From: a bacterium
GTDB taxonomy: Bacteria; Vulcanimicrobiota; Xenobia; Xenobiales; JADMJV01
Length of the DNA: 39,227 bases
Assembly: GCA_030149525.1 (NCBI GenBank)
Contig: JASBRJ010000256.1
Coordinates: forward strand, 1-39,227
Direction: 5' to 3'
The notes under the pieces were generated by a model, which worked only from the letters and a program-made list of their open reading frames with translations, was not told the origin of the DNA and ran no database searches. Of the stretch, positions 662 to 32,557 are shown in pieces (positions within the stretch are counted from its first letter, which is position 1; each line of letters begins with the position of its first letter). The translations under genes and the position numbers were made by a program.

Positions 662-1675
662 GTGGATCTGCGCCACCAGCATAATTTTTTCTGCCAGTTG
701 GACCTCTTGATCAAAACCGGGACGCCTATCAGTCAAGCTTTAGAGCTAGTGGCAGACTCGCCCGATCCGGAGAGCGCAGAGGCCGGACAAAAGCTTCTGA
801 GACGACTGGAGACAGGCGTTCCGTTATCGGCCAGTTTCGGAGAAGTCTTCGGGCCCGTAACGGGTGGCCTCTTAGGAATTGCCGAACGGACCGGCAGCCT
901 GGTCCAGACCCTGCAAGGGATAGCCTCTCGATGCTCCGATCAGATTCGACGCCAGGACGAAGTTCGCAATGCCGTTGTGTATCCGCTGGGGGTGCTTTTG
1001 CTGTCTATGGTCGTGGGCGCCACTATTATCGTCCTCCTTCTCCCCCAACTTCTTCCTTTTGTTACGAGCTTAGGAGTGCCGCTCCCCTGGCCCACCAGAG
1101 TCCTGGTCGTTATCAATCAATGGAGTTGGGTTTGGGCTAACCTGCTTTTTCTTCCTCTCTCCGCCCTGGCGGTGATGTCGCGGACCCACCCGGAAAGACT
1201 TGAGAGTCTCAAGCTTTGGCTCAGAGAGAGCACACCGCTTTTAGCTCCCATTCTTCGCCAACTCGATCTGGCTCACGCTTGTCAGGATCTCCGTCTGTGC
1301 ATAACGGCAGGCCTCGGTTTTCACGAAGCTTTGAAACTCCTGAGCCGAACCTGTCCCAGTCCCAGTCTTGCCAGGGAATTTACATCCCTCTCCAAGGCCA
1401 TCTTCCAGGGAGAGGAATTGGAAGTCTATTTTCAACAAAACGACGAATTGAAGGGGATGTTCGGCACTGCGGTCGTTCTAGGTCAGGAAGCCGGTAAGCT
1501 CCCGGAGATGTTGAACTGCGCGGCTCGGATCTTGCAAGACAATGCGGAGTTTCAGCTTCGAAGCCTAATAACCCTGATCGAACCGGCAGCCATGGCAACC
1601 GTAAGCCTCACGGTGGGCTTTCTCGCGGTAGCGGGCCTCATGCCGATCTATCAGGTGGTCACCGCGCCTTTCTAA
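662..1675 (+). CDS. Type II secretion / type IV pilus platform protein, GspF/PilC family (two T2SSF-like repeats, compact 337 aa)
   Basis: GTG start. Two T2SSF-type segments, each followed by hydrophobic TM stretches (VVYPLGVLLLSMVVGATIIVLLLP; IEPAAMATVSLTVGFLAVAGLMPIY). This is the typical GspF C-terminal motif arrangement. Confidence 0.7.
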   Translation: MDLRHQHNFFCQLDLLIKTGTPISQALELVADSPDPESAEAGQKLLRRLETGVPLSASFGEVFGPVTGGLLGIAERTGSLVQTLQGIASRCSDQIRRQDEVRNAVVYPLGVLLLSMVVGATIIVLLLPQLLPFVTSLGVPLPWPTRVLVVINQWSWVWANLLFLPLSALAVMSRTHPERLESLKLWLRESTPLLAPILRQLDLAHACQDLRLCITAGLGFHEALKLLSRTCPSPSLAREFTSLSKAIFQGEELEVYFQQNDELKGMFGTAVVLGQEAGKLPEMLNCAARILQDNAEFQLRSLITLIEPAAMATVSLTVGFLAVAGLMPIYQVVTAPF

Positions 1676-7280: not shown

Positions 7281-7976
7281 TACTCGTTCTCTCCTTGAAT
7301 TCGAGGGGTCAAGAGAAACTCTCGTCGAGCCACAATCCGGCCTTGAGGCGAGTCGGTGGTAAAGGTGAGAACAAAATTCCATTGCCTCTCTTCACTTGTC
7401 GGGGTCACTTCAAAGGTCTCGAGGTGGCCGGCCCAACGCTCTTCGACAATCCCTGAGGAGCAGGCGGCTATAAGCTCCGTCTGAGTGAACGCGAAAGGGT
7501 CGGTTGTGGGCAGAGGGGGCTTCTTCCATCTCAACCGAACCAATCGCCTTTTGGCCGAGTCGAGCTTCAGTATGGTGACGGTTCGCCAGAACGTCCGTCC
7601 GGAAACCGGATCGAAACTGGCAACAGAGTCGCTTCCTTCATGAGTTAAGAAGCTGACCGCCGAAAGAGTGGGCTGATTGACGCTGGTGACTGAATCCGGA
7701 GTGGAAGGGAGAAAGGCCGTTCTAATCCTGGCTTCGGCCAGAAGGGCCGCTTGCTCGATCTCAGCCCTGGCCCGAGTCTGCTTCCAGATTTGGAACCCGG
7801 GGAGTAGCACCTGGGCGATAATAGATAACAGAACTCCTATGAGCCCAAGAGCGATCAGACTCTCAAGGAGAGATAGTCCGGCGGTGCTATTCTGAGTTCT
7901 AGAGAAAATTTTGCACCATCCGAACCAACGGCAAGAGACAGGCCAGGGCGACCAGGCCCACCAGGAGACCGACAAC
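7280..7976 (-). CDS. Prepilin-type pseudopilin (GspJ-like size), start codon uncertain
   Basis: Class III signal ...NSTAG|LSLLESLIALGLIGVLLSIIA with Glu+5. There is no ATG/GTG/TTG within 25 codons upstream of the Gly. The candidate TTG starts at 7976 or 8035 overlap the 3' end of the GAF-GspF gene. The upstream extension is Trp-rich, which is an antisense artefact. Confidence 0.55.
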
Positions 7977-9572
7977 GGCCATAATGAGTGGTTCCACGAG
8001 GCCCTGGGCAGTCTCAACCGCCTCCTCCAGTTCAAAATTCAGGAGCCGCTCGATCACTCTGCACATTTCCGGCACCCTGCCGGTTTCTTCTCCTACCGCA
8101 ATGAACTCTGTGAGGAGTGGCGGAAAGAATGAAGAGCGTCGCAGTGCAAACTCGAGAGTATTACCGTTCATAACACGGGTTATGACCCGCTCCATCTCCT
8201 CCCGAACCGTTTCCGAGCCGGAGGCGATTCCGGCCAACCGCAGGCTGGCGTCCAAATAGAGGCCGGCTTCCAACTGCAGCCCCAGCGCCCTCACTAAACG
8301 GGTTGTGAGAAGCGTCTTGTAGATAGAGCTTGCAAGCGGGAGCCCCAGCAGCCAATTTTCGAAACGTCGACTCCGCAGAATGGGAGCAGCGACAGGCCTT
8401 GCCACTGCGGCTATAGCAAAGACTACCAGGACGGTGACAGGCTGAGAGAGCAGCCAAGAACCCGCCATGACCACTTGGCTCAACCAAGGTAGTTCCACGC
8501 CACTTTGAGTCAAGTTCTCGAAGAAGTCGTTCAGAAAGAGTGGTGGAGCGGCCAAGATAAGAATCAGACAGAAGACAAAAATGACGGTTGGATAGAGCAG
8601 TGCTGAAATCAATCGACCGCGGGTCTGAACCTCGCTTTCCACAGCTCTTGCGATAGTTTCAGCCGTGGTGTCGAGCGTTCCGGAGTTCTCTCCGACCTTG
8701 ATAAGTTTTCGTTCGTGGAGAGGAAAGAGTAGATGAAAGCGGCTCATGGCTCTGGAGAGGGGGCACCCTTTCTCCACATCCTCCAGGAGCTGGGCGGAGA
8801 AGGGAGCAAACCTGTTCTCGCTCTCAGAAAGGAGCTGAAGCGACCTGTGCACCGGAAAGCCTGAAGCGAGCATGCAGGCTAAAGCTCGGTAAAAGACGGC
8901 CTTATCGGATAAGCTCGGTCGAGGTCGTCGCCTGAGGTGAGGCGGCGCCTTCAGAATCTCCTCCGTTGCCCGCGGTTGGAGATCTGCTCCGCTCGCCCCT
9001 GTGGTTCTCCGGGCTTCCGCCGATACCGGTTCCTCGAGAGGGGGCTCCTGATGCCTTTCCAGCCGGGCCAGTGCTCTGGCTAAAGCCGTAGCCAATCTGA
9101 TGGCCCAACGAAGCTCCTCCAGATTGAACGCGTTGATGAGGGAGGCGCTATCGATGTAGATAAGACCCTTAGTGTTGCCTCCCATAATGACTGGAGCACA
9201 TAAAACGCTTCTCTGACCGATCCTCTTGACACTATGACTGGCTTGAAATTCGGCCTCGTTAAGGGCGTCGCCTATAACAATGGCCCTATTGGTGCGGCGG
9301 ACCCGACGAATGATGGCGCGACTGATCTCTTCGGTGGTGACAACGAAGGCGGCTTTGTTCCCGTAGCACGCTCTCACCGCCAAAGCACGATGCTCTTGAT
9401 GGAGTAGGAGAATGCGATCAGCGAAGGAGAAACGCTCCCGACAGAGTGAAAGCGCCTCCTCGAAAAGACTCTCGGGAGTCGTGGAGACAAGCTCTACCGG
9501 ATCCTGGCCGATCGGAAGAACGTCGCCGTCGGGTTCGCTTCCCGGACGGTCTAACTGACAAGAGTCAGCCAA
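7899..9572 (-). CDS. GAF domain fused to GspF/PilC-type secretion platform protein (557 aa)
   Basis: A ~180-aa N-terminal GAF-like fold (…VLCAPVIMGGNTKGLIYIDSASLINAFN…) and a basic linker (RRRPRPS). Two T2SSF repeats follow with three TM segments (LLYPTVIFVFCLILILAAPPLF; VVMAGSWLLSQPVTVLVVFAIAAV; LIMAVVGLLVGLVALACLLPLV). TTG start. Confidence 0.75.
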   Translation of the reverse strand: MADSCQLDRPGSEPDGDVLPIGQDPVELVSTTPESLFEEALSLCRERFSFADRILLLHQEHRALAVRACYGNKAAFVVTTEEISRAIIRRVRRTNRAIVIGDALNEAEFQASHSVKRIGQRSVLCAPVIMGGNTKGLIYIDSASLINAFNLEELRWAIRLATALARALARLERHQEPPLEEPVSAEARRTTGASGADLQPRATEEILKAPPHLRRRPRPSLSDKAVFYRALACMLASGFPVHRSLQLLSESENRFAPFSAQLLEDVEKGCPLSRAMSRFHLLFPLHERKLIKVGENSGTLDTTAETIARAVESEVQTRGRLISALLYPTVIFVFCLILILAAPPLFLNDFFENLTQSGVELPWLSQVVMAGSWLLSQPVTVLVVFAIAAVARPVAAPILRSRRFENWLLGLPLASSIYKTLLTTRLVRALGLQLEAGLYLDASLRLAGIASGSETVREEMERVITRVMNGNTLEFALRRSSFFPPLLTEFIAVGEETGRVPEMCRVIERLLNFELEEAVETAQGLVEPLIMAVVGLLVGLVALACLLPLVRMVQNFL

Positions 9573-9659: not shown

Positions 9660-10742
9660 TCAGATAGGAGTTTGCGATTCGAATCGCGTGGAGGGCAGGG
9701 GGCGGGGCAAAAAGTCAGGCGTCACAGGCCTCTCCTCCATGGGGATGTGGAACACGGGAGTGGCCCCACCTGAGAGCGGCGGAACGATCCAGGACCAGTT
9801 AGCATTGACTCTGCGGGAAGCTTTCTCTTCCAGCTCCATGTATTTCAAGAATTGTCTTGAAGCGGTGTGATGATCCACGATGGTCACTCCGGCGCGTTGG
9901 AAAGAGTGAAGCACAGCCCTGTTGAGTTCTACCAGAGTCTGATCTCGCCACAGAGTTCTTTCGTCGCTGATGTCATACCCGAATCGCCAGGCCAACTTGG
10001 GCAGCAGATTATAGCGATGAGGGTCGGCCAGATTTCTGGCCCCGATCTCCGTCCCCATGTACCACCCACTGAAGCAACAGGGAAAATGCAATCCGCCCAC
10101 CTCCAGCAAGTTGTTACTAATCACCGGAAGAGCGTGCCAACGGAGTCCGAGCCCCTTGAACCAGGCTTTCTCAGGATGCTCCAACTCCACCTCGAGGACC
10201 GCCTCCGATGGAAGTTCAAAAAGCTCCACTCGAGGGCCGTTTTGGATGGCCAGCGGAAGAACCTGAAACGGCTTACCCGTCGGCTCCCATCCCAAAGCTC
10301 GGAGCCGTGCCACAAACTCGGCCTGCTCAGGGTCGTCGGCATATCGGATAAGTTGGGAATTCAAAACGGTGGGAGTGTCGGGCCCGAAGACGGTGAGAAT
10401 CGGCTTTATGAGCCCGCCGTTCGTCGATTCCACCAGATGCTCGACACAGCTTTCGAATGTCTCCCTTGAACTTCGAAGGTGCCGAAAATCTCTGACCTCC
10501 AGTTGACGCCACACCAGACGGCCGATACAGCGAGCGTTGTTCCGCCAGGCTAGCTTCCCCCCAAAATCGAGTTCACTGGGACTAAGAGTATAGGTTCCTG
10601 TGGCCAGGAATTCTGCTTCTATAGCTTTCCATCGCTCAGATTTCTCCGCTGGAGAGAGAAGCTGTTCCTCGACCAATTCCTGGAGAAAGGCATGCACCGA
10701 CTCCCGGAGAGCCGGTGGAACGTTCTTTTGAAGACGAGGCAT
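9660..10742 (-). CDS. nos: Bacterial nitric-oxide synthase, oxygenase domain only (bNOS)
   Basis: Signature motifs AWRNNARCIGRLVW (heme-thiolate Cys), FSGWYMGTEIGARN and NWSWIVPP. The 360-aa length with no reductase or Zn-hook N-terminus matches bacterial NOS (e.g. Bacillus, Deinococcus). Confidence 0.9.
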   Translation of the reverse strand: MPRLQKNVPPALRESVHAFLQELVEEQLLSPAEKSERWKAIEAEFLATGTYTLSPSELDFGGKLAWRNNARCIGRLVWRQLEVRDFRHLRSSRETFESCVEHLVESTNGGLIKPILTVFGPDTPTVLNSQLIRYADDPEQAEFVARLRALGWEPTGKPFQVLPLAIQNGPRVELFELPSEAVLEVELEHPEKAWFKGLGLRWHALPVISNNLLEVGGLHFPCCFSGWYMGTEIGARNLADPHRYNLLPKLAWRFGYDISDERTLWRDQTLVELNRAVLHSFQRAGVTIVDHHTASRQFLKYMELEEKASRRVNANWSWIVPPLSGGATPVFHIPMEERPVTPDFLPRPLPSTRFESQTPI

Positions 10743-16113: not shown

Positions 16114-16743
16114 ATGAACATCAACATCAATTTTGGATATCAAACTCGTGGATGCTGGGGAGGCGGCTGGAGACCTTCACCTGTGTATCGCCCGGTCAAC
16201 TCAAACCACGGTAACCTCGACGGCGCTGTTGTCGGCAACCGACACTGGTTTTGGGGCGGTGGCGCACCGGTGCGGGGCTATGGCGTCGATCTGAACAACA
16301 ACGGACGCTACGACCGCGGACAAGACGGAGTCCTCGCCTTCGACTTCAACCGCGACGGCAAACTCGGCCGCAAAGAGATCACCCAGTCGCGCGAAATGTT
16401 GAGAGCTTTCGGTGGATGCGACGATATCAACGGCGACGGCAAAGTCAGCTTTTCCGAAAGAAACAAAGCCCGCAGATACCGAGCCCGAATGCAACGAATG
16501 GACCTCAATCGCGACGGCAAACTCAGCACCTACGAACTCGCGCGAGGCGGTGCCCTGGTCGGTGTGGACCATAACCGCAACGGTAAGTTTGGCCGCCATG
16601 AAACTTACAGCCCCTACAACATTCCTACTCCTGGTTTCGGACGTGGACGCCTCGACTTCGTGGACCCTTCGCGAGGATACAGCCAGGTTAATCACGGATG
16701 GGCCTGGAGTTTTCCTCCTCACTATGGCTGCTGCTGCCGATAG
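16114..16743 (+). CDS. EF-hand calcium-binding protein (4-5 canonical 12-residue loops), Gly/Trp-rich N-terminus, C-terminal CCC
   Basis: Loops DFNRDGKLGRKE, DINGDGKVSFSE, DLNRDGKLSTYE, DHNRNGKFGRHE (DxNxDG…E) plus a degenerate DLNNNGRYDRGQ. SD-like GAAGGG 9 nt upstream of the ATG. Confidence 0.75.
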   Translation: MNININFGYQTRGCWGGGWRPSPVYRPVNSNHGNLDGAVVGNRHWFWGGGAPVRGYGVDLNNNGRYDRGQDGVLAFDFNRDGKLGRKEITQSREMLRAFGGCDDINGDGKVSFSERNKARRYRARMQRMDLNRDGKLSTYELARGGALVGVDHNRNGKFGRHETYSPYNIPTPGFGRGRLDFVDPSRGYSQVNHGWAWSFPPHYGCCCR

Positions 16744-22612: not shown

Positions 22613-23311
22613 ATGACGCAACCCCCAAAGATCCTGATTGTCGACGACGACAAAGACCTGCAAAGGGTGCTCCAGCTGGAACTTGAGACCTTCAGCTACA
22701 ACGTTTGTTTTGCCCAAGACGGCATCGAAGCCCGGGCCAAATCTCGCTCTGAAAATCCCGATCTCATCATTCTCGATGTGAATCTGCCAGGCATGGACGG
22801 TCTTGAAGTGTGTCGAAAGGTTCGCTCCGAGTCCAACGTCCCGATTCTCATGCTCAGTGCCCTCAGAGAAGACTACGACCGTATTGTGGGCTTGGAAGTC
22901 GGTGCCGACGACTATCTGGGGAAACCTTGCAATCCCAGGGAGTTGCTGGCCCGAGTACGTGCTCTACTTCGTCGCTCACGAATGACGAAAAGCAGCGAGC
23001 CGAATTCCGATCACGAACTCAGGATTGGCGAACTCTTTCTGAACACCGAAAGCCACCAGGCATGGCAAAAAGAAGAGCCGCTCTCTCTCACACCTATTGA
23101 ATTTTCTCTCTTGGAACAGTTGATGGCAAATCATCAAAAAGTTTTGTCACGCGAAGAACTCATCGAGTCGATCTGGGGCAGCGACTTCGTCAGCAGCCCG
23201 CGGATTCTAGATACTCACATTCGCAATTTGCGACGCAAACTTGATCCTGCCGGTCCAGCCATAGACGTGGTCAGAGGCATAGGCTTCAAACTTTCTTTAT
23301 TAAATCAGTAA
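22613..23311 (+). CDS. OmpR/PhoB-family response regulator (REC + winged-helix DNA-binding domain)
   Basis: ILIVDDD, LIILDVNLPGMDG and ADDYLGKP receiver motifs. C-terminal LTPIEFSLLEQLMAN…LDTHIRNLRRKL trans_reg_C. Confidence 0.9.
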   Translation: MTQPPKILIVDDDKDLQRVLQLELETFSYNVCFAQDGIEARAKSRSENPDLIILDVNLPGMDGLEVCRKVRSESNVPILMLSALREDYDRIVGLEVGADDYLGKPCNPRELLARVRALLRRSRMTKSSEPNSDHELRIGELFLNTESHQAWQKEEPLSLTPIEFSLLEQLMANHQKVLSREELIESIWGSDFVSSPRILDTHIRNLRRKLDPAGPAIDVVRGIGFKLSLLNQ

Positions 23312-23462: not shown

Positions 23463-23942
23463 ATGTCAAAATATCACATTCGCGAGGAGCTTGTTGCAGC
23501 TCAAGTCGGCGATGAGCTCGTCGTCTATGACTCAAAACTTCAAGCGGCCCACAGCTTATCTGCTGATGCCGCCGAACTCTTTCAGAGACTCAAAGAGGGA
23601 AAAGAACTCGAGCACAGCGAGGCAAATCTCGCGATTCTTTCACTCTTCGCAGAAAAAAATTTCCTCGAGGAGTCCGATGACTGGAGTCGTCGAGACTTTC
23701 TATCCGGTGCCATCAAAGCCGCCACCGTCCCCCTCATCGCAAGCGTTGCCCTCCCCGTTCCGGCGGCAGCCCAGTCCGGCGCCGGCGTGTCGGAGGCTGA
23801 CTGCGAACTCAGCGGAGGGGCATCCTGCGGTCAACCCTGCACCGGCTTCCCTATCGGCACGCGAGTCTGTGGCTCCGTGAGCGGAGTGCCGGGCGGGGCA
23901 TGTGGGTGTGTGCCGACTCCGGCAGCCTGCAGTTGCACCTAA
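23463..23942 (+). CDS. Hypothetical protein: PqqD/RRE-like N-terminal domain (~70 aa) + internal twin-arginine-like signal/TM segment + 8-Cys C-terminal tail
   Basis: Strong SD GGGAGG 5 nt before the ATG. Residues 15-70 (DELVVYDSKLQAAHSLSADAAELFQRLKEGKELEHSEANLAILSLF) follow the PqqD/RRE pattern. SRRDFLSGAIKAATVPLIASVALPVPAAAQS resembles a Tat signal with an AxA site. The tail is CELSGGASCGQPCTGFPIGTRVCGSVSGVPGGACGCVPTPAACSCT. A 6-nt gap separates it from the next gene. Confidence 0.6.
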   Translation: MSKYHIREELVAAQVGDELVVYDSKLQAAHSLSADAAELFQRLKEGKELEHSEANLAILSLFAEKNFLEESDDWSRRDFLSGAIKAATVPLIASVALPVPAAAQSGAGVSEADCELSGGASCGQPCTGFPIGTRVCGSVSGVPGGACGCVPTPAACSCT

Positions 23943-23978
23943 ACTAGATTGCCTACGGACACAATTTGGAGCAGAGAC

Positions 23979-26900
23979 ATGAGATTATCCTGGAAACAAC
24001 CCGCCATAGCTTTGGTGGCTTTAATAAACTTCGGCTGTGGTGCCGTGGAAACCGGATTCACGGCCAACCCCACCTCACCCGGCACACCCATCGCGGCCAA
24101 CACCACGGAAGCCGTAGCAGGCTCACCCGGGGCCGCCGAGTTTCTGGCTCGTAACGCGGCCCAGGGCTTTGCCTCGGTAGAAGACCGCAGTGTGGGCCAG
24201 AACCGCTTTCTGGTCTTCACCAGTCGTGGAGACCTCATCGCCGCCGATACCAACGGACGACGGGATATCTATCTAAGAGATCTTCGTACCGGTGAAATGA
24301 GGTTGGTCAGTGTGGCCACCAACGGCACCCAGGGTAACGGTGACTCCACTCAAGCCTCCATTTCCGCCGACGGGCGTTTCGTGGTCTTCCGCTCGGCCGC
24401 TACCAACCTGGTGACAGGCGACGGTAACGGTGTGACCGATATCTTTCTTCATGAGATCGCCACCGGGACCACCACTCGAGTGAGCACCGCCACCGGTGGA
24501 GCAGAAGTAAGCGGCGCCAGCCTGACGCCTGCCGTCTCGGCCAACGGACGCTACGTGGTGTTTGCTTCTTCTGCAACAAACCTGGTGGCTACCGACAGCA
24601 ACGGCGCTCAAGATATCTTCTTAAAAGACGTCACCACCAACACCACAACCCTGGTGAGCAGCAACTCGGCCCAAACAGATTCGGCCAACGGCAACTCCTA
24701 CGACCCCGCCATCACCGCCGGAACCACCACCGAAGGAGAGTTCATCGCCTTCTCCACCGAGGCCACCGACATCGTGGCAGGCGGTCTTAACGGACAGCGC
24801 CAGGTGGTCCGTATCGAACGAGCCACCCCCGCAAACCGGGTTCTGGTGAGTCAGAGCGCCGGGGCCGTGCAAGCCGACGGTCCGTGCTACGAACCCAGCC
24901 TCTCTAACGACGGTAACACCGTGGCCTTCTTCACCCTGGCCACCAACCTCGGCGCGGTGGCCGACGGCAACGGCTTCTTCGATGTTTACACCAGAAATAT
25001 TTCCGGAAATACCACCACCAACCAGAGTGTGAACACCGGTGGCAACCCCTCCGACGGTCACAGCGGCTATCCCAGTCTCTCCGCCAACGGTTCGGTTGTG
25101 GCTTTTGGAAGTCTCGCCACAGACCTTGTAGCAGGTGACTCCAACGGACGATTCGACGTTTTTCGACGAGAGAGCGGGTCCACGAGCCTGGCCAGCCAGG
25201 CCACCGACAGCACCGCCGGAAACTCCGATTCCGATCTTCCCGGCATATCGCTTGACGGTCGCTATGTGGCGTTCCGCTCGGCGGCCTCCACGCTTTCCAG
25301 TAACGATAGCACTACTGATGATGACATTTTTCTGAGAGATTCCCTCACCCCGGCAACGGTGCTGCAGAGCATCGCATGTCGCATTCTAGCGACTTTTGCC
25401 GGGGTTTCCGGTTCCTCGTTCACCACCGGGCTGAATCCTATTGACACAGCAGTCGCTGACTTCGATGGCGACGGCAACCTAGATGTGGCAACAGCAGATA
25501 GAGGCGACAACACCGTCTCTGTCCTGCTCGGCAACGGGAGCGGAGGCCTAGGGACCGCCTCAAGTTTCGCTGTTGGGACGACCCCTGTTCCTATTCTGGC
25601 TCGAGACTTTAACGGCGACGATAACGTCGATCTTGCCGTAGCGAACTATGCCAGCGGGAACGTCTCCATCCTCATAGGAGACGGGACCGGGGGATTCGCA
25701 GCCGCCGCCAACTTTATGGTAGGAGCCGCAGGGGGCGCAAATCCCCTCGCTATGGTTACCGCCGACTTCAATGGCGACAACAACCTGGATCTGGCTGTTG
25801 CTAACGACAGCACGGACGATACGACGATTCTTTTAGGTAACGGAGCCGGCGGTTTTACGCTCGCGGCGAACCTCGACCATGGGTTCGTCGCTGTAAGAGA
25901 TATCGCCCAGGGCGACTTCAACGGCGATACCTTTCCCGACCTGGCGGTCTTGAAATCAGACAGTGAATTTCGTCTCTTTTTCGGAGATGGTACGGGAGCT
26001 TTCGGACCGTCAACCTCAATTTCAACAGAGAGCAGTCCCGCGGCCATCACGACCACTGATTTCAACGGCGACGGGAACCTGGATATCGCGACACTCCACA
26101 CGTTTAATGACGTTCAAGTCTTCTTGGGAGATGGCACAGGGGGCTTTTCAGCCCCGACCGGCTTCCCTCCAGCTGTCGGTGGCTCCAGCGGGGGTGCACA
26201 GAGAGCGAAAATCCTTCCCGTGGATCTGGACGGAGACGGGAATCTGGATCTCATCTCGACCGGGGGATCGCGAGGTCTCTCTTTTCTACCAGGAAACGGG
26301 GACGGTACATTCGGAGCCGCGACAGAAATCGACGAGCCAGGGCGTTCCCTGAGTGTCGGAGACTTTGACAATGATGGATACCTCGATCTTGTAGCGACGG
26401 ATTCATCTCCTCCCAACGACGATCAAGTTCTCATCCTCCTCAACCAACGCCCCGACTGGCCCGGTCTCGGTTCCAAGACAGATTACTCTACTAGTTCCCG
26501 TCCCGAAAATCTCGCCATGGGAGACTTGGACGGCGACGGAGACCTCGACTTCGTGGTCAAGAGCAGCGATAGTGACAATCTGTCCATCAGACTCAACAAC
26601 GGCTCGGGAGTCTTCTCCGGTTCGGACATCGCTCCGGTCTCCGGCTTGAATTCAGCGGTGGTAAGACTGGCCGACTTCAACAACGATGGATATCTCGACA
26701 TCTTGCTCCTGGCCAGTGGAGACTACGCGCTCCTCACCAATGACGGTCAGGGAGGGTTCAGCGTCAACGCCGTCTCGTTCTTATCCGGCGGTGGACCCAA
26801 AGTGGCTGTAGCCGATATGAACGGGGACGGATTCTTAGATTTCGTGGTGGGAGCGTCAAGCTCTACGGTGACTCGAACCTTCTTTAACGACACAGCCGGC

Positions 26901-27494
26901 GGCTTCACCCCGGTGAGCCTGTCGGCCAACGCTACAAGCGACATACTCCTGGGAGATATCGACGGAGACGGAGATGCCGATATTGTGCGAACTCGCGCCG
27001 ATCTTGGTTCGCCTCGAAGTTTCCAGGTTCGCTTTAACGACGGCTCCGGAAACTTCGGCGCAGAAAGCGCTCGGGGAAACCAGTACAACAGAGGACGAGG
27101 CGCCCTCGCCGATGTGGACGGCGACGGAGACCTGGATTTCGTCAACAGTCTCCGCACTTCAAACAACGTCGCCGTGTCTCTCAACGACGGGACCGGCACC
27201 TTTAGTGCGGACGTCCTGTATCCCGTGGGTTCGCTTCCTCAAAAACCAGCCCTCGCCGACGTCGATGGAGACGGAGACCTGGATATCGTCGTGGCCAACG
27301 ACAGCGACAATACACTTTCTGTCTTGCTCGGAAATGGAAGAGGAGCCTTCGCCCCAGCACGGACTTTCACCGTGGGAGACACGCCGAATGACCTGGACCT
27401 GGGCGATCTAGACGGCGACGGAGACCCGGACATCGCTTGCCCCAACAATCTGGATTCCAACGTCTCTGTCTTTTTGAATCAAGCTTGCCCTTAA
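23979..27494 (+). CDS. Large surface lipoprotein: lipobox signal, PD40/TolB-like beta-propeller N-half, FG-GAP/VCBS repeat C-half (paralog 1)
   Basis: MRLSWKQPAIALVALINFGC lipoprotein signal (ATG 23979 with GGAG SD; the track ORF starts at TTG 23949). Repeats of the type NG.RDIYLRDL.TGE and SADGRFVVF. About 12 FG-GAP-like units with DxDGDGxLD motifs. Ends …LNQACP. Confidence 0.8.
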   Translation: MRLSWKQPAIALVALINFGCGAVETGFTANPTSPGTPIAANTTEAVAGSPGAAEFLARNAAQGFASVEDRSVGQNRFLVFTSRGDLIAADTNGRRDIYLRDLRTGEMRLVSVATNGTQGNGDSTQASISADGRFVVFRSAATNLVTGDGNGVTDIFLHEIATGTTTRVSTATGGAEVSGASLTPAVSANGRYVVFASSATNLVATDSNGAQDIFLKDVTTNTTTLVSSNSAQTDSANGNSYDPAITAGTTTEGEFIAFSTEATDIVAGGLNGQRQVVRIERATPANRVLVSQSAGAVQADGPCYEPSLSNDGNTVAFFTLATNLGAVADGNGFFDVYTRNISGNTTTNQSVNTGGNPSDGHSGYPSLSANGSVVAFGSLATDLVAGDSNGRFDVFRRESGSTSLASQATDSTAGNSDSDLPGISLDGRYVAFRSAASTLSSNDSTTDDDIFLRDSLTPATVLQSIACRILATFAGVSGSSFTTGLNPIDTAVADFDGDGNLDVATADRGDNTVSVLLGNGSGGLGTASSFAVGTTPVPILARDFNGDDNVDLAVANYASGNVSILIGDGTGGFAAAANFMVGAAGGANPLAMVTADFNGDNNLDLAVANDSTDDTTILLGNGAGGFTLAANLDHGFVAVRDIAQGDFNGDTFPDLAVLKSDSEFRLFFGDGTGAFGPSTSISTESSPAAITTTDFNGDGNLDIATLHTFNDVQVFLGDGTGGFSAPTGFPPAVGGSSGGAQRAKILPVDLDGDGNLDLISTGGSRGLSFLPGNGDGTFGAATEIDEPGRSLSVGDFDNDGYLDLVATDSSPPNDDQVLILLNQRPDWPGLGSKTDYSTSSRPENLAMGDLDGDGDLDFVVKSSDSDNLSIRLNNGSGVFSGSDIAPVSGLNSAVVRLADFNNDGYLDILLLASGDYALLTNDGQGGFSVNAVSFLSGGGPKVAVADMNGDGFLDFVVGASSSTVTRTFFNDTAGGFTPVSLSANATSDILLGDIDGDGDADIVRTRADLGSPRSFQVRFNDGSGNFGAESARGNQYNRGRGALADVDGDGDLDFVNSLRTSNNVAVSLNDGTGTFSADVLYPVGSLPQKPALADVDGDGDLDIVVANDSDNTLSVLLGNGRGAFAPARTFTVGDTPNDLDLGDLDGDGDPDIACPNNLDSNVSVFLNQACP
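24040..25305. repeat. Direct repeat copy A (~1.27 kb, ~93-95% nt identity to 27568-28833); 5' halves of tandem paralogous lipoprotein genes
   Basis: Long identical runs, e.g. gccaacaccacggaagccgtagcaggctc and ctggctcgtaacgcggcccagggctttgcctcggtagaagacc, occur in both copies. The proteins are about 95% identical over ~440 aa without indels. Confidence 0.8.
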
Positions 27495-27506
27495 GGAGAA
27501 CACGCT

Positions 27507-30500
27507 GTGAAACTATCTTGGAAGATACCCGCTGCCACTCTTGTGGCACTCCTCAACTTCGGCTGCGGCGGAGTGGAAACCGGCCTCTCAGCCGGTCCCA
27601 CCTCACCCGGCGCCCCCATCGCGGCCAACACCACGGAAGCCGTAGCAGGCTCGCCCAGAGCCGCCGAGTTTCTGGCTCGTAACGCGGCCCAGGGCTTTGC
27701 CTCGGTAGAAGACCGGAGCGTGGGGCAGAACCGCTTCCTGGTCTTCACCAGTCGTGGAGATCTCATCCCCGCTGATACCAATGGAGTGCGCGATGTCTAT
27801 CTGAGAGATCTTCGTACAGGTGAGATGCGTCTGATAAGTGTGGCCACCAACGGCACTCAAGGAAACGGTGACTCCACTCAAGGCTCCATCTCCGCCGACG
27901 GGCGCTTCGTGGTCTTCCGCTCGGCCGCCACCAACCTGGTGACAGGCGACGGTAACGGTGTGACCGATATCTTTCTTCATGAGGTCGCCACAGGCACCAC
28001 CACTCGGGTGAGCACCGCCACCGGTGGAACAGAAGTGAGTGGCGCCAGCCTGACCCCTGCCATCTCGGCCAACGGACGCTACGTGGTCTTTGCTTCTTCT
28101 GCTACAAACCTGGTGGCCACCGACAGCAACGGCGCTCAAGATATCTTCTTAAAAGACGTCACCACCAACACCACAACTCTGGTGACCAGCAACTCGGCCC
28201 AGACCGATTCGGCCAACGGTGCATCTTTTGACCCCGCCATCACCGCAGGAACCACCACCGAAGGAGAGTTCATCGCCTTCTCCACCGAGGCCACCGACAT
28301 TGTGGCAGGCGGTCTTAACGGACAGCGCCAGGTGGTGCGCATCGAACGAGCCACTCCGGGGACCAGAGTTTTGGTCAGCCAGAGCGCCGGGGCCGTGCAA
28401 GCCGACGGTCCGTGCTACGAACCCAGTCTCTCCAACGACGGTAACACCGTAGCTTTCTTCACTCTCGCCACCAATCTCGGTGCGGTGGCCGACGGCAACG
28501 GCTTCTTCGATGTCTACACCAGAAATATTTCCGGTAATACCACCACCAACCAGAGCGTGAACACCGGGGGCAACCCCTCCGACGGCCACAGCGGCTATCC
28601 CAGTCTCTCCGCCGACGGTTCAGTTGTGGCTTTCGGAAGTCTCGCCACCGACCTTTTGGCAGGTGACTCCAACGGACGATTCGACGTCTTCCGACGAGAG
28701 AGCGGGTCCACGAGCCTGGCCAGCCAGGCCACCGACACCACCGCCGGAAACTCCGATTCCGATCTTCCCGGTATCTCACTTGATGGTCGCTATGTGGCGT
28801 TCCGCTCGGCGGCCTCCACCCTTTCCAGCCACGACAGCACCACCGACGACGACATCTTCGTGAGAGACAGCAGCCTCGCCACCACCTTCTGGAGCACTGT
28901 GAGTTGCCTCTTCCCGGGTGTTTGGCCCGGTACGAACGGCTTGCCCGCCAGTCGGACCATTGTAGGGATTGATGGCCCTTATGATGTGGACGCAGCCGAC
29001 GTGGACGGTGACGGTGATATCGATCTGATTGGCGGCAGTCGAAACGGTGATTCGGTCTCTGTCCTCCTCAACTCAGACGGCCTTGGCACCTACACACTTG
29101 CCGCTACTCTTGCGGTGGGCGACGCTCCCGTAGGTGTTCTCTGGGCCGATTTGAACGGAGACGGCAATCTGGACATCGCCACAGCCAACGTCACCAGTAC
29201 CAACGTATCCATTCTGCTCGCCACCGACGGCACCGGCACCAACTATTCCGCAGCCACGAATTTCACCACCACCGACAGTCCGTACAACATTTACGCGGGG
29301 GACCTCGACGGAGATGGAGACCTCGATCTTGTCACCGCCAACTTCAGCAGTTCCTCGATCTCCGTTCTGCTCAACAACGGCACGGGAGGCTTTTCCGCTC
29401 CTACCGTCCTGTCTGGTGGGTTAGACTTCAACGAACACCTGGCCTTGGGAGACCTGGATGGAGACAGCGACCTGGACATCGTCACGGCCAACAGTCTTGA
29501 CACCACCATCTCGATTTTCCCAAACTCCGGCTCCGGAACCTTCGGCGGGCGTACCGATATTGTGGTAGGGGGTGGACCCATTGGAATCGATGTGGCTGAT
29601 TTGGACGGAGATATGGACCTGGATATTGTGACCAGCAATAGAGATGACGGCAACGTCTCTGTCCTCATCAACAACGGCAGTGGAAGCTTTACCGCACCGG
29701 TCAACTATCCAGTGGGTAGCAGTCCCAACGCTTTGCGTCTCTCCGATGCCAACGGCGATGATGTCCCGGACCTCTTCGTTATCAACAGGACTGAGGACAG
29801 CGTGGGCGTGCTTCTCAATTCTGGAACGGGAACCTTCGGCGCTATGACGACCACCACGGTGGGAGACGCCTCCAGCAACCTCGTGGTGGCGGATGTGGAC
29901 GGCGAAATGGATAGGGACATTGTCGTACCGAGTATCAACGACGACAAGATCTCCATCCGTCTCAATCAAAACGGCCTGGGTAGCTACGAAACACCTGTTT
30001 CCATCGCTACGCTGAATGAACCACTTTCGGTTTCCCTGGGAGACTTTGACGGCGATGGAGACATCGATTGCGCCGTTGCTGAAGACACCTCCAACGTCAG
30101 GGTGCTCTTGAACACAGACGGAGCAGGCACACTTGGGAGCCCTTCCAATTTCGCCGCAAACGGTAGTCCTAGAGGCCTGGCCCAGGGCGATATCGACGGA
30201 GACGGCGATCTCGATTTGGTGGCTTCTAATACAACCGGCAGTATGCTCTCGGTCTTTACGAATTCCGGACTCGGTGTGTTCAGCGGCCCCACCAGCTTCG
30301 CGGTGAATATACGAAGCCAGCATGTGGCCCTGGGGGACCTCGACGGAGACGGTGATCTCGATCTGGTGACGGCGGCCGGTACTAGCGACGGACTTTCCGT
30401 CCTGTTCAACTCCGACGGTATGGGCACATTCTCCGGATTGACGACCTACAACCAGCCCGGTCGATCCTTCTGGGTAAGCCTGGGCGATGTGGACGGTGAC

Positions 30501-31019
30501 GGGGATCTTGATATGGTCGTCGTCAACTCCGATATCGACATGATAACGGTCTATCTCAACTCTGACGGAATGGGAACCTTTGTCAATGATTCTACTTACT
30601 CTGTAGGGAACCAACCTGAAAGTTTGGCTTTTGGTGACATCGACAACGATGGGGACCTCGATATAGTGGTCTCCGACCGGTTCGACAATACCGTGTCCCT
30701 ACTCAGGAACTCCGGCACAGGCTCCTTTGCGGCCGCCGTGACCACACCAACCGGCCACCGACCTCAAACCGTTCACCTGGGTGACTACGACGGCGACGGA
30801 GACCTCGACATCGCCACGGTCGATGGGGGAAATAGCCTGAGCGTTCTGCTGAACTCCGATGGCTCGGGAGGCAGCTTCTCCTCATCCCTCATTCCCGTCG
30901 GCGCGGGTTCTCTCTACCTGGATGCCGCCGATCTCAACAGCGACGGAGACCTCGACTTTGTGGTCAGTAGCTTTAGCAGCAACGGTCTCAGCGTTCTGCT
31001 CAACCAGGCATGTCCGTAA
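27507..31019 (+). CDS. Large surface lipoprotein, paralog 2 (PD40-like N-half nearly identical to paralog 1; divergent FG-GAP/VCBS C-half)
   Basis: GTG start with AAGGAG SD. MKLSWKIPAATLVALLNFGC lipobox. More than 12 FG-GAP-like units (DLDGDGDLD…). Ends …LNQACP. Confidence 0.8.
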   Translation: MKLSWKIPAATLVALLNFGCGGVETGLSAGPTSPGAPIAANTTEAVAGSPRAAEFLARNAAQGFASVEDRSVGQNRFLVFTSRGDLIPADTNGVRDVYLRDLRTGEMRLISVATNGTQGNGDSTQGSISADGRFVVFRSAATNLVTGDGNGVTDIFLHEVATGTTTRVSTATGGTEVSGASLTPAISANGRYVVFASSATNLVATDSNGAQDIFLKDVTTNTTTLVTSNSAQTDSANGASFDPAITAGTTTEGEFIAFSTEATDIVAGGLNGQRQVVRIERATPGTRVLVSQSAGAVQADGPCYEPSLSNDGNTVAFFTLATNLGAVADGNGFFDVYTRNISGNTTTNQSVNTGGNPSDGHSGYPSLSADGSVVAFGSLATDLLAGDSNGRFDVFRRESGSTSLASQATDTTAGNSDSDLPGISLDGRYVAFRSAASTLSSHDSTTDDDIFVRDSSLATTFWSTVSCLFPGVWPGTNGLPASRTIVGIDGPYDVDAADVDGDGDIDLIGGSRNGDSVSVLLNSDGLGTYTLAATLAVGDAPVGVLWADLNGDGNLDIATANVTSTNVSILLATDGTGTNYSAATNFTTTDSPYNIYAGDLDGDGDLDLVTANFSSSSISVLLNNGTGGFSAPTVLSGGLDFNEHLALGDLDGDSDLDIVTANSLDTTISIFPNSGSGTFGGRTDIVVGGGPIGIDVADLDGDMDLDIVTSNRDDGNVSVLINNGSGSFTAPVNYPVGSSPNALRLSDANGDDVPDLFVINRTEDSVGVLLNSGTGTFGAMTTTTVGDASSNLVVADVDGEMDRDIVVPSINDDKISIRLNQNGLGSYETPVSIATLNEPLSVSLGDFDGDGDIDCAVAEDTSNVRVLLNTDGAGTLGSPSNFAANGSPRGLAQGDIDGDGDLDLVASNTTGSMLSVFTNSGLGVFSGPTSFAVNIRSQHVALGDLDGDGDLDLVTAAGTSDGLSVLFNSDGMGTFSGLTTYNQPGRSFWVSLGDVDGDGDLDMVVVNSDIDMITVYLNSDGMGTFVNDSTYSVGNQPESLAFGDIDNDGDLDIVVSDRFDNTVSLLRNSGTGSFAAAVTTPTGHRPQTVHLGDYDGDGDLDIATVDGGNSLSVLLNSDGSGGSFSSSLIPVGAGSLYLDAADLNSDGDLDFVVSSFSSNGLSVLLNQACP
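27568..28833. repeat. Direct repeat copy B (pair of 24040-25305)
   Basis: See copy A. The offset of 3528 nt is constant across the repeat. Confidence 0.8.
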
Positions 31020-31045
31020 GCAAATCCCTCAAGGAAAGAAAAATC

Positions 31046-32557
31046 ATGAAAATCACCTGGAAACACTCCATCATAAGCCTCCTCTCACTCATAACCTTCG
31101 GTTGCGGAGGTGGTGGCGGCACAGATATCGTGGCCGGCCCTGTGACCGGCAAGCCTACGGGGCAGCCCAGCACCCCGGCGCCCAATCCCATCCCCAACCC
31201 GGGGACCCCGCCGGTTCTCAGCCCCGACGGTGTTGTCTTCTTTCAGAGCAACGCCTCCGCCGGTGGCGACGGGTCGGCCACCTCCCCCTTTAACGATTTC
31301 GCAACCGCTCTCGCCTCCACACCCGCCGGAGAGACGCTCTTTCTCTACGCCGGAAGCGGCCCGATTCCGTTCAGCGGTACCATCCCTGGAAATATTCGCA
31401 TTCTGGGTGAGGGACTGGGATTCACCACAACAGGTTTCTCGGTCACAGCCGGAGCGTTCCCTCGCCTTCAAGGTCAGATCACCCTGGCCGACGGCGCGGT
31501 GGTTCAGGGGGTCCAGTTCGAGAACCCCACAGGTCACGGTGCCACTGCCGCCAACGTCACCAGTTTGACTCTCGACTCCAACCGCTTCACCAACATCTCA
31601 GGCGATGCACTTCATATCGAGCGGGCCAACGGAACTCTGAGGCTCACCAACAACGCCATCGTCGACGACTCCCTCGATCCCACCGACGGAGTCGACGTCA
31701 CCGTGGCAGGCTCGGACAACCTGAACCTCACTTTCAACTCCAACACCTTCAGCACGCCGTCGCGAGCCAACTCCTTCGACAACGGCCTGAAGCTGACCGC
31801 CCAGGGCAGCTCCCAACTCACCCTCAACGCCCAAAGCAACACCTTCGACGTGCAGGGGCGCGGCGTTCAAATTCAGGTCTCGGAGACCTCCGTCTTCAAC
31901 GGCACTCTCACCCAAAACACCTTCACCCAGACGCCTCTGGAAGGCATTTCCCTAACCACGGGCCTTGCTACCACCGACACCGCCCAGGCCACCATAGTGG
32001 TCGACAATAACACTTTCAATCAACCCCTCGGTCCGGGAGTGTCTCTTTTGGCCGGAGGAGCCACCACCAACAATTGGACGGTACAAAACAACACCGTGAA
32101 CGCCGGTGGAAACTTCGGCCTCCTGCTAGTGCGCGGCGACAGCGCCTTCGCTCGCAGCAGCGTGAGCAACAATCAGATCTCCAACGCCCAACAGGTGGGA
32201 TTTCAGTACACCAGCGGCACCGCTTCCGGCGGATTCACCGTGCCTCTAGCCGGCGAAGACCGGATCACCGTGAGCGGCAATCAGGTCACAGGTTCCGGCG
32301 TCTCCAGCATGAATTTGAATCTGGTGAGCCAAACTCACGCCGCCCTTCTCACCGGTAATACCACGGGAGGGCCGGTGGTGATGTTGGCCCGGGCGACCAA
32401 CGCTTGCGCCGGTGCCGGAAGCAACAACGTGGGCGGTGCCTTCGCCATCAATGTAGAGAACGGATTCTCCCTCATCTTCGACAACCGTGGCCAAACTACA
32501 CCGGCCGTCTCCTTTCCCGGGGCCGGTACCGTGACACCGGGGGCCTGCATCCCTTGA
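31046..32557 (+). CDS. Lipoprotein with right-handed parallel beta-helix repeats (pectin-lyase-fold-like), ~503 aa
   Basis: MKITWKHSIISLLSLITFGCGGGGG signal related to the two upstream lipoproteins (ATG 31046 with AAGGA SD; the track ORF starts at 31010 inside the preceding gene). Many Asn/Thr-rich ~22-aa turns (NNxI, TLDSNRFTN, TLNAQSNTF). Ends …GACIP. Confidence 0.7.
   Translation: MKITWKHSIISLLSLITFGCGGGGGTDIVAGPVTGKPTGQPSTPAPNPIPNPGTPPVLSPDGVVFFQSNASAGGDGSATSPFNDFATALASTPAGETLFLYAGSGPIPFSGTIPGNIRILGEGLGFTTTGFSVTAGAFPRLQGQITLADGAVVQGVQFENPTGHGATAANVTSLTLDSNRFTNISGDALHIERANGTLRLTNNAIVDDSLDPTDGVDVTVAGSDNLNLTFNSNTFSTPSRANSFDNGLKLTAQGSSQLTLNAQSNTFDVQGRGVQIQVSETSVFNGTLTQNTFTQTPLEGISLTTGLATTDTAQATIVVDNNTFNQPLGPGVSLLAGGATTNNWTVQNNTVNAGGNFGLLLVRGDSAFARSSVSNNQISNAQQVGFQYTSGTASGGFTVPLAGEDRITVSGNQVTGSGVSSMNLNLVSQTHAALLTGNTTGGPVVMLARATNACAGAGSNNVGGAFAINVENGFSLIFDNRGQTTPAVSFPGAGTVTPGACIP

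Follow-up and report, generated by a model that had tools for sequence, protein, structure and literature searches.

In Salmonella, the Braun-lipoprotein paralog LppB carries a penultimate cysteine (Cys57, before the terminal Lys58) that bonds chains to one another by disulfides in vivo and links oligomers (bioRxiv 10.1101/2025.11.13.688167). A lone cysteine at or near the same position is found on the predicted lipoproteins of an operon in a bacterial contig of 39,227 nucleotides (JASBRJ010000256.1, assembly GCA_030149525.1; Vulcanimicrobiota, Xenobiales), the whole of which is here called the window. The operon comprises four co-directional, tightly packed genes on the forward strand (positions 23463-32557), which encode a protein of 159 amino acids (aa), two giant paralogous lipoproteins (lipo1 and lipo2) and a beta-helix lipoprotein (Table 1). 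The likeness to LppB lies in the combination of N-terminal lipidation of an envelope protein, predicted in the present case, with a lone penultimate cysteine. However, LppB is a coiled coil of 58 residues whose lysine is cross-linked to peptidoglycan, whereas the proteins described here are propellers of 1170 aa and a beta-helix of 503 aa that end in proline, and there is no homology between them.

Further comparisons are more distant. The IgA/IgM secretory tailpiece ends a large secreted protein, and its penultimate cysteine bonds chains through disulfides (PMC3896607). That system is eukaryotic, has an unrelated fold and lacks a lipid anchor. The J chain that joins IgA and IgM is small and contains eight cysteines, which echo, by analogy only, an eight-cysteine (8-Cys) domain encoded in the same operon. 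Short conserved C-terminal motifs, some with cysteine, also mark surface proteins that carry the MYXO-CTERM, CGP-CTERM, PEP-CTERM, GlyGly-CTERM or LPXTG signals or the C-terminal domain (CTD) of the type IX secretion system (T9SS). In signals of the sortase type the motif is followed by a hydrophobic transmembrane (TM) helix and basic residues, and the T9SS signal takes the form of a folded domain (~80-100 aa). In contrast, the chains studied here stop 1-2 residues past the cysteine, inside an FG-GAP blade or a beta-helix cap. With solved FG-GAP proteins, such as CRTAC1 (9etn), the Psathyrella lectin PVL (2bwm) and the TcdB/YenB propellers, the giants share FG-GAP/VCBS repeats, D-x-D-x-D-G calcium loops and seven-blade units, although the matches to these had E values of only 1e-7 to 1e-12. 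We know of no solved FG-GAP relative with a penultimate Cys-Pro end or with a PD40 propeller fused behind a lipobox.

An initial annotation of the window noted that all four operon proteins terminate in a cysteine-containing sequence (PAACSCT, FLNQACP, LLNQACP and TPGACIP, all on the + strand), which is correct, and read these as one A-C-(x)-P/T tag, which they are not. The ending resolves into three components: an LNQ that marks the closing blade of a propeller and is thus a repeat feature, a near-terminal cysteine and proline on two lipoprotein families, and an unrelated 8-Cys domain, to which the C-x-C-[TIV] ending of the small protein belongs. Moreover, the spacing of the cysteine differs between the two lipoprotein folds (x-C-P in the FG-GAP proteins, C-x-P in the beta-helix). 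On balance, we favour by a narrow measure the reading that the near-terminal cysteines are disulfide cysteines and not a sorting signal, with a possible inter-chain link in the giants and a C-terminal staple (C454-C501) in the beta-helix protein.

Architecture and conservation of the endings

Lipo1 consists of a signal with lipobox Cys20, a PD40 beta-propeller (residues ~55-455) and 14 FG-GAP blades (461-1171) that end in N-Q-A-C-P. Pfam scans detected FG-GAP_3 in lipo1 (E 2.4e-94, 14 stretches), together with FG-GAP and PD40, and in lipo2 (E 2e-97). Both proteins belong to FG-GAP/VCBS (PF13517, PF01839) at 310-320 bits (cutoff 26.9; 13-14 matched stretches and 14 calcium loops per protein), and to PD40/TolB-like (PF07676) at 34-36 bits against a cutoff of 20.9, with more than 100 PD40-annotated homologs aligning to residues 1-460. 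A weak NCBIfam match of lipo2 to 'Cys-Cys-COOH protein SaoC' (16.9 bits, cutoff 80) fell on internal FG-GAP repeats and was dismissed. Split at the calcium-loop motifs, the 14 blades are interpreted as two seven-bladed propellers, and both chains end directly after strand 3 of blade 14. The sequence LNQ occurs only at blades 7 and 14 of both paralogs, where all other blades have LLN[SDNT]G. Since these are exactly the closing blades, LNQ is a mark of propeller closure, and the part specific to the terminus is x-C-P alone.

The C-terminal halves of the two paralogs had been reported to have diverged around an identical LNQACP, and this is so: protein identity is 92.6% over residues 1-460, 39% beyond, and 38% over the last 50 residues, of which the last six are identical. 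The six codons (TTG AAT CAA GCT TGC CCT in lipo1, CTC AAC CAG GCA TGT CCG in lipo2) differ at a synonymous site in 6/6 cases, so the identity is held at the amino-acid level. Two trivial causes could be discarded. Gene conversion is excluded by the six codon differences and by signal-coding DNA that is only 57-68% identical, and a ribosome-binding site did not constrain the final lipo1 codons, given that the Shine-Dalgarno sequence of the next gene (TAAGGAG) starts at the stop codon. The first 460 codons of lipo1 (23979-25358) and lipo2 (27507-28886) share 89% DNA identity, a pattern that points to concerted evolution confined to the PD40 halves.

Two related loci (L012 6087-6434 and L015 2422-2769) contain a 115-aa remnant of a third FG-GAP paralog. 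Its signal and first ~85 residues run straight into the last 30 (SLSVLLNQACP), which indicates that the paralog array recombines, and it keeps both the lipobox and the terminal NQACP.

The beta-helix protein has its lipobox cysteine at residue 20, a second cysteine at residue 454 (codon 32405-32407) and the tail G499-x-C501-x-P503 (32540-32554). It belongs to the right-handed parallel beta-helices (PF13229; Pfam E 4.9e-15, 55.9 bits against a cutoff of 25.9). Its AlphaFold2 (AF2) model has a mean predicted local distance difference test score (pLDDT) of 82.5 and regular three-strand rungs; the score is 84-91 over the final 60 residues, and the tail is thus ordered, not floppy. Weak Foldseek neighbours were found among GH28, GH87, PL6 and tailspike beta-helices, with no other folds.

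An x-C-P ending is present on 11 of the 16 complete PD40+FG-GAP lipoproteins, and a cysteine followed by none or one residue and a final proline (C-x0-1-P) on 9 of 10 beta-helix lipoproteins, the window protein included. Homologs that keep the cysteine and final proline are about 40-60% identical and were seen across loci L002 and L008-L012. In the FG-GAP family the endings with cysteine are NQACP (P0007, P0015 and the L012 remnant), NLACP (L002/L012 lipoX and P0081), NATCP (P0026), and NQVCP, NQICP and NQLCP (P0098, P0100 and P0114). Members without it are P0041 (NQAAP), P0058 (NQARP), P0111, P0035 and the L011 protein (RLW[IV]P). The beta-helix proteins end in G-x-C-x-P or G-x-C-P in eight of nine homologs and in the window protein, the other homolog (P0133) ending in GFCTF. 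Alleles ~98% identical to the window beta-helix carry three of their ten substitutions at residues 498, 500 and 502, with G499, C501 and P503 fixed; the estimated chance of at least three of ten substitutions falling within one given six-residue window is about 2e-4. Such alternating conservation fits an extended tail with one face packed on the protein body.

Among 108 generic PD40 homologs none ends in C-x0-1-P, 23 end in proline, and five have a cysteine within the last three residues. Among 103 crude gene calls from the window and seven related loci the ending was found ten times, only in these two families, and on none of about 85 neighbouring genes; lipo1 and lipo2, being paralogs, count as one observation. 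DNA scans for DG..D-x15-N(Q)xCP-stop, which demanded a TAA/TGA stop and a 29-residue geometry and were thus not exhaustive, matched once in GTDB representatives and four times in JGI metagenomes, in each case by chance and outside FG-GAP genes.

Comparison of sequences thus indicates that the C-terminal ending is under selection, as the initial annotation had surmised: cysteine and proline are kept at about 40-60% identity while synonymous sites diverge and the tail flanks vary. The opposing explanation, in which the endings have no specific function and are historical accidents of paralogy and close kinship, can draw on the paralogy of lipo1 and lipo2, the repeat origin of LNQ, the general frequency of a terminal proline in this protein class (23/108) and the loss of the cysteine from some members. 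It is the least credible of the alternatives weighed here, given that the ending persists down to about 40% identity with synonymous sites fully turned over, that the fixed cysteine and proline are flanked by fast-changing tail positions, and that no generic homolog shares them (0/108).

The N-terminal signals behave differently. Shine-Dalgarno-like sequences favour the starts MRLSWK at 23979, GTG-KLSWK at 27507 and MKITWK at 31046, which place the cysteine at residue 20 in all three lipoproteins. Each signal begins with MK or MR, continues with a hydrophobic stretch and has F-G-C at residues 18-20; Gly at -1 fits a lipobox, in which Phe at -2 and Asn/Thr at -3 are unusual. Judging by these signals, lipidation of the three large proteins is likely. 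The shared MK[LI][ST]WK...FGCG signature that had been pointed out is real, but it is lineage-specific: distant orthologs have ordinary lipoprotein signals in the same place (LLAGC, LLSGC, LVAC). Because the coding DNA of the three signals is only 57-68% identical, their similarity does not stem from recent conversion. The signal of the third-paralog remnant in L012 (MKISWKRSII...) is the FG-GAP signal nearest to that of the beta-helix protein.

Comparison with C-terminal sorting signals

The conserved ending had been suggested to act as a sorting or processing tag, and its anatomy speaks against this. The chain stops 1-2 residues past the cysteine, with no TM helix, basic tail or CTD, and the succession of motif, hydrophobic segment and basic cluster that defines PEP-CTERM, LPXTG, GlyGly-CTERM, MYXO-CTERM and CGP-CTERM is absent. 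No sortase-, exosortase- or rhombosortase-like gene was found in the window, and none that is sortase-like in the related loci sampled. In agreement with the observation that the ending is unlike the described PEP-CTERM, GlyGly-CTERM, LPXTG and T9SS CTD tags, NCBIfam and Pfam scans matched no C-terminal sorting model. The last 30 residues of the giants form a normal FG-GAP blade in place of a T9SS C-terminal domain, and the sole T9SS-related match lay on internal FG-GAP repeats, at 30 bits against a cutoff of 600. Thus, the Cys-Pro ending is not a C-terminal sorting signal of a known type, and a new sorting tag is unlikely.

More generally, C-x0-1-P-COOH might be a new tag, recognised for sorting, cleavage, lipidation or some other chemistry by an enzyme encoded elsewhere in the genome. 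Several observations would suit such a tag: two unrelated folds of one operon both carry a near-terminal cysteine and a final proline, the ending is conserved across lineages with these two residues fixed amid variable neighbours, and the penultimate cysteine of the giants apparently has no partner in its own chain. However, described sortase, exosortase, rhombosortase and archaeosortase signals all have the hydrophobic or basic segment that is missing after this motif. No sorting-domain model was matched and no candidate enzyme was found in the window or related loci. In addition, within the sample of about 100 genes on 8 contigs only the two operon families have the ending, none of the 108 generic homologs has it, and several members lost the cysteine and kept everything else. 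We consider such a tag very unlikely.

Pairing of the cysteines

Besides the lipobox, the FG-GAP lipoproteins share three family-specific cysteines: Cys-A in GPCYEPS, Cys-B just after the PD40 domain in the motif [ST][ILV]xC[RLKIMA]F, and the penultimate Cys-Z. Cys-A replaces the canonical serine of the PD40 motif in this family only, two unrelated matches aside. All members with Cys-A and an FG-GAP domain have Cys-B, and a PD40-only relative in L011 lacks Cys-B and has a different extra cysteine 44 residues before Cys-A. Cys-Z has been lost at least three times with A and B kept (P0041, P0058, P0111 and the L011 protein, with AAP, ARP and other endings). In L002/L012 lipoX and P0100 the mature chain contains only Cys-A, Cys-B and Cys-Z, an odd count. 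Most other cysteines of the FG-GAP region, which are probably buried, occupy hydrophobic strand-2 core positions (D[IL]xC). The DIACP of lipo1 (residues 1151-1155, with Cys1154 at a strand-2 core position), which had been pointed out 20 residues upstream of the ending, is present; its absence from relatives such as P0007 makes it incidental.

Because the proteins are exported, a disulfide is the most likely state of the near-terminal cysteine. In the FG-GAP lipoproteins, Cys-A would pair with Cys-B; such a bond leaves Cys-Z without an obligatory partner in its own chain, which therefore makes it a candidate for an inter-chain link. Cys-Z may join the paralogs lipo1 and lipo2, or one of them to another operon product, and the terminal proline would cap the chain. 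The intermolecular disulfide for complex assembly that had been listed among the possible roles is thus viable for the FG-GAP proteins. In its mature form the window beta-helix protein contains two cysteines and no more, C454 and C501, invariant in eight homologs, and the second cysteine ~47 residues upstream of the terminal one is kept in all beta-helix homologs. In this protein C501 would probably pair with Cys454 in a C-terminal staple.

Several points weigh against these pairings. Each is read from cysteine counts and conservation and not from S-S distances, and A, B and Z co-occur largely by shared ancestry within about 17 sequences. P0081, which has Cys-Z, shares a contig with an adjacent P0111, which has not, and this rules out a Z-Z heterodimer as a general rule. 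In the beta-helix protein, Cys454 and Cys501 lie about two rungs apart by periodicity, so a staple needs the tail to leave the helix, and the mature cysteine count is odd in P0131 and in the second beta-helix of L011.

The question then arises whether all terminal cysteines are intramolecular staples, with Cys-Z bonded to Cys-B or to a nearby variable cysteine and locking the ring closure of the last propeller. In these proteins strand 3 of the last blade is the final one in the chain, and the fourth strand has to be supplied from another place, which would suit such a lock. In P0015, furthermore, the Cys-B motif (TTFWASISCAFPAVWPG) directly precedes the last seven-blade propeller and does not directly follow the PD40 domain. 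Independent giant FG-GAP proteins that end after strand 3 also have a terminal cysteine (LL[QNK]xC) in about 9-11 of 12 cases, pointing to a role linked to the fold. These were found in a search with a single-propeller profile, in which the best 150 of 246,866 matches were giant multi-propeller proteins and did not enlarge the family; the proteins stopping after strand 3, whose endings exposed the LLQTC group, include P0157, P0242, P0245, P0250, P0278, P0279, P0290, P0295, P0220 and P0281. Their chains likewise stop after strand 3 with the cysteine two residues past LL[QN], but the cysteine is the last residue, without a proline, on multi-propeller proteins of 1400-2900 aa that may be one family. 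Propellers at the end of a polypeptide may, by these comparisons, more widely have a chain-terminal cysteine. As an account of all the terminal cysteines, however, the staple is doubtful. Cys-Z was lost at least three times with Cys-B retained, in members with only A, B and Z one cysteine would stay free whatever the pairing, and the LL[QNK]xC proteins have no consistent partner cysteine. A register estimate would also place Cys-B several residues along its strand, away from the loop of Cys-Z.

The terminal thiol could alternatively work as a free cysteine in metal binding or redox sensing, perhaps with the 8-Cys domain of the small protein. The apparently unpaired state of Cys-Z would allow this, and the small protein, with its twin-arginine-type signal and two C-x-C pairs among its eight cysteines, would suit a cofactor loaded in the cytoplasm. 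However, no metal-binding family was matched in Pfam or NCBIfam scans, the AF2 model of the 8-Cys domain is uninformative, and a lone cysteine followed by proline is a poor metal site. A free thiol is therefore highly improbable. Somewhat further reaching, and unlikely as a whole, is a covalent surface complex in which the 8-Cys domain, freed from its leader of RRE-like fold (RiPP recognition element) and Tat (twin-arginine translocation) signal, would be joined by disulfides to the penultimate cysteines of the giants, and perhaps to the beta-helix protein, like a bacterial J chain. Alternatively, and within the same low probability, Cys-(x)-Pro-COOH would be recognised for a new kind of C-terminal modification.

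If the disulfide reading that we favour is right and the penultimate cysteine links chains, it would be a simple, sequence-readable mark of disulfide-assembled surface lipoprotein complexes in a barely known marine lineage, and would carry the LppB finding over from a very small coiled coil to propeller proteins of giant size. Cysteines that served only as internal staples would be an ordinary structural detail of an uncharacterised operon.

The 159-residue protein and its surroundings

The small protein that opens the operon is its least ordinary component, and its combination of an RRE-like fold, an internal Tat-like signal and an 8-Cys domain makes it a more unusual object than the ending itself. 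It has no Pfam family and consists of three parts: a domain resembling PqqD and the recognition elements of peptides synthesised on ribosomes and modified post-translationally (RiPPs) at residues 1-74, a twin-arginine-type signal at 75-103 and the 8-Cys domain at 104-159. The N-terminal domain is modelled by AF2 at pLDDT 73-84 in the order beta-beta-beta-alpha-alpha (E-E-E-H-H). With Foldseek, its first 70-85 residues best match the RRE of the lasso-peptide protein TbiB1 (5v1u; probability 1.00, TMt 0.67, root-mean-square deviation 2.9 A), and the next PDB matches (lasso B1, TigE, ThcOx, MccB and SuiB) all contain an RRE. The domain thus has the three-stranded sheet and helices of the winged helix-turn-helix that characterise the PqqD/RiPP recognition element. 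Sequence signals are weak: NCBIfam PqqD_rel_X (TIGR04353) gave a sub-threshold 17.6-18.8 bits (cutoff 35, E 0.002-0.006) for three homologs, and PF05402 gave 12.9 bits (E 0.14, cutoff 23.4) for a single homolog. Unlike described RREs, the domain precedes a twin-arginine-type signal and a cysteine-rich domain in one fused polypeptide, scores below the family cutoffs and has no RiPP-modifying enzyme in its operon. Both the sequence score and the partner enzyme expected of a RiPP recognition element are therefore missing.

Residues 75-103 comprise SRRDFL, 20 hydrophobic residues and AAA/QS, with RR invariant and AAAQS conserved in homologs. They align to the Tat transit peptide of PsbQ', and the motif begins at residue 75, behind a folded domain, so that this segment may be regarded as an internal putative signal of the twin-arginine type. 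The eight cysteines of residues 104-159 are conserved in all full-length homologs; they include two C-x-C pairs, and the ending C-x-C-[TIV] holds the last two of the eight. The AF2 model of this domain is uninformative, as its pLDDT is only 29-41. No described family with this three-part architecture was found. The whole resembles a precursor with a folded leader, with no modifying enzyme nearby.

Genes for the small protein also occur at L007 7959-8441, L008 12730-13194 and L009 8766-9254. In these three distant lineages a conserved protein of ~230 aa (LLYSLR...GRRN[FY]HLLY) adjoins or overlaps the small-protein gene (L007 7228-7962, L008 11992-12687, L009 9331-9999). Neither Pfam, NCBIfam nor PDB gave a match to this companion, and by tblastn the window lacks it.

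The family is rare, with 6 homologs of the small protein and 9 of the beta-helix protein among 5.8 billion clusters, and the PD40+FG-GAP architecture is common to about a dozen proteins. A beta-helix profile search of GTDB representatives found no relative. The homologs derive from marine metagenomes (Tara and others), one distant contig being labelled Xenobiales, a class within Candidatus Eremiobacterota; a marine Eremiobacterota family has been described (PMC9259500). The gene set recurs in shuffled order in L002, L008, L009, L011 and L012, usually by a two-component system, and in part in L007 and L010. In the window, the OmpR-type response regulator immediately upstream (Table 1) is the probable regulator of the operon, and the distant locus L009 repeats the neighbourhood with a hybrid kinase, a kinase-receiver protein and a regulator. 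The best explanation of the operon is a two-component-regulated set for cell-envelope proteins of a rare marine lineage, which may be Candidatus Eremiobacterota (class Xenobia). Whether a possible fifth gene overlapping the beta-helix stop codon is a member of the operon is uncertain: it is conserved in L013 (1634-1981) and was not called in L012, L014 and L015, and its product has no Pfam match.

Table 1. Features of the operon and its immediate flanks in the window.
Feature	Position	Strand	Remarks
OmpR-type response regulator	22613..23311	+	Response_reg + Trans_reg_C on orthologous gene in L001-L006; immediately 5' of operon
159-aa protein	23463..23942	+	Ends PAACSCT
Lipoprotein 1 (lipo1), 1171 aa	23979..27494 (alternative start 23949)	+	Ends FLNQACP
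Terminal A1169-C1170-P1171 codons of lipo1 (GCT TGC CCT)	27483..27491	+	Stop codon 27492-27494
Lipoprotein 2 (lipo2), 1170 aa	27507..31019	+	Lipo1 paralog of the same architecture; ends LLNQACP; A-C-P codons GCA TGT CCG at 31008-31016
Beta-helix lipoprotein, 503 aa	31046..32557 (alternative start 31010)	+	Ends TPGACIP
Possible fifth gene, 116 aa	32554..32904	+	TTG start overlapping beta-helix stop; by translation, one TM helix and 3 Cys near C-terminus

The remaining genes of the window encode proteins similar to F components of the type II secretion system (T2SS-F-like), kinases, a nitric-oxide synthase, and SPFH, PilZ, EF-hand and arginine-pathway proteins. Two T2SS-F/PilC-like platform proteins are encoded at 7899-9572 (-) and 662-1675 (+), one of them with an N-terminal GAF domain, and a GAF histidine kinase, a Ser/Thr kinase and a PilZ protein are encoded near them. 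The nitric-oxide synthase oxygenase domain (PF02898, E 8e-123), of the bacterial type, lies at 9660-10742 (-). The EF-hand protein (209 aa, 16114-16743, +) adds a further cysteine-rich C-terminus to those of the window: it ends in YGCCCR, and this ending is kept in its ortholog at L003 2622-3251.

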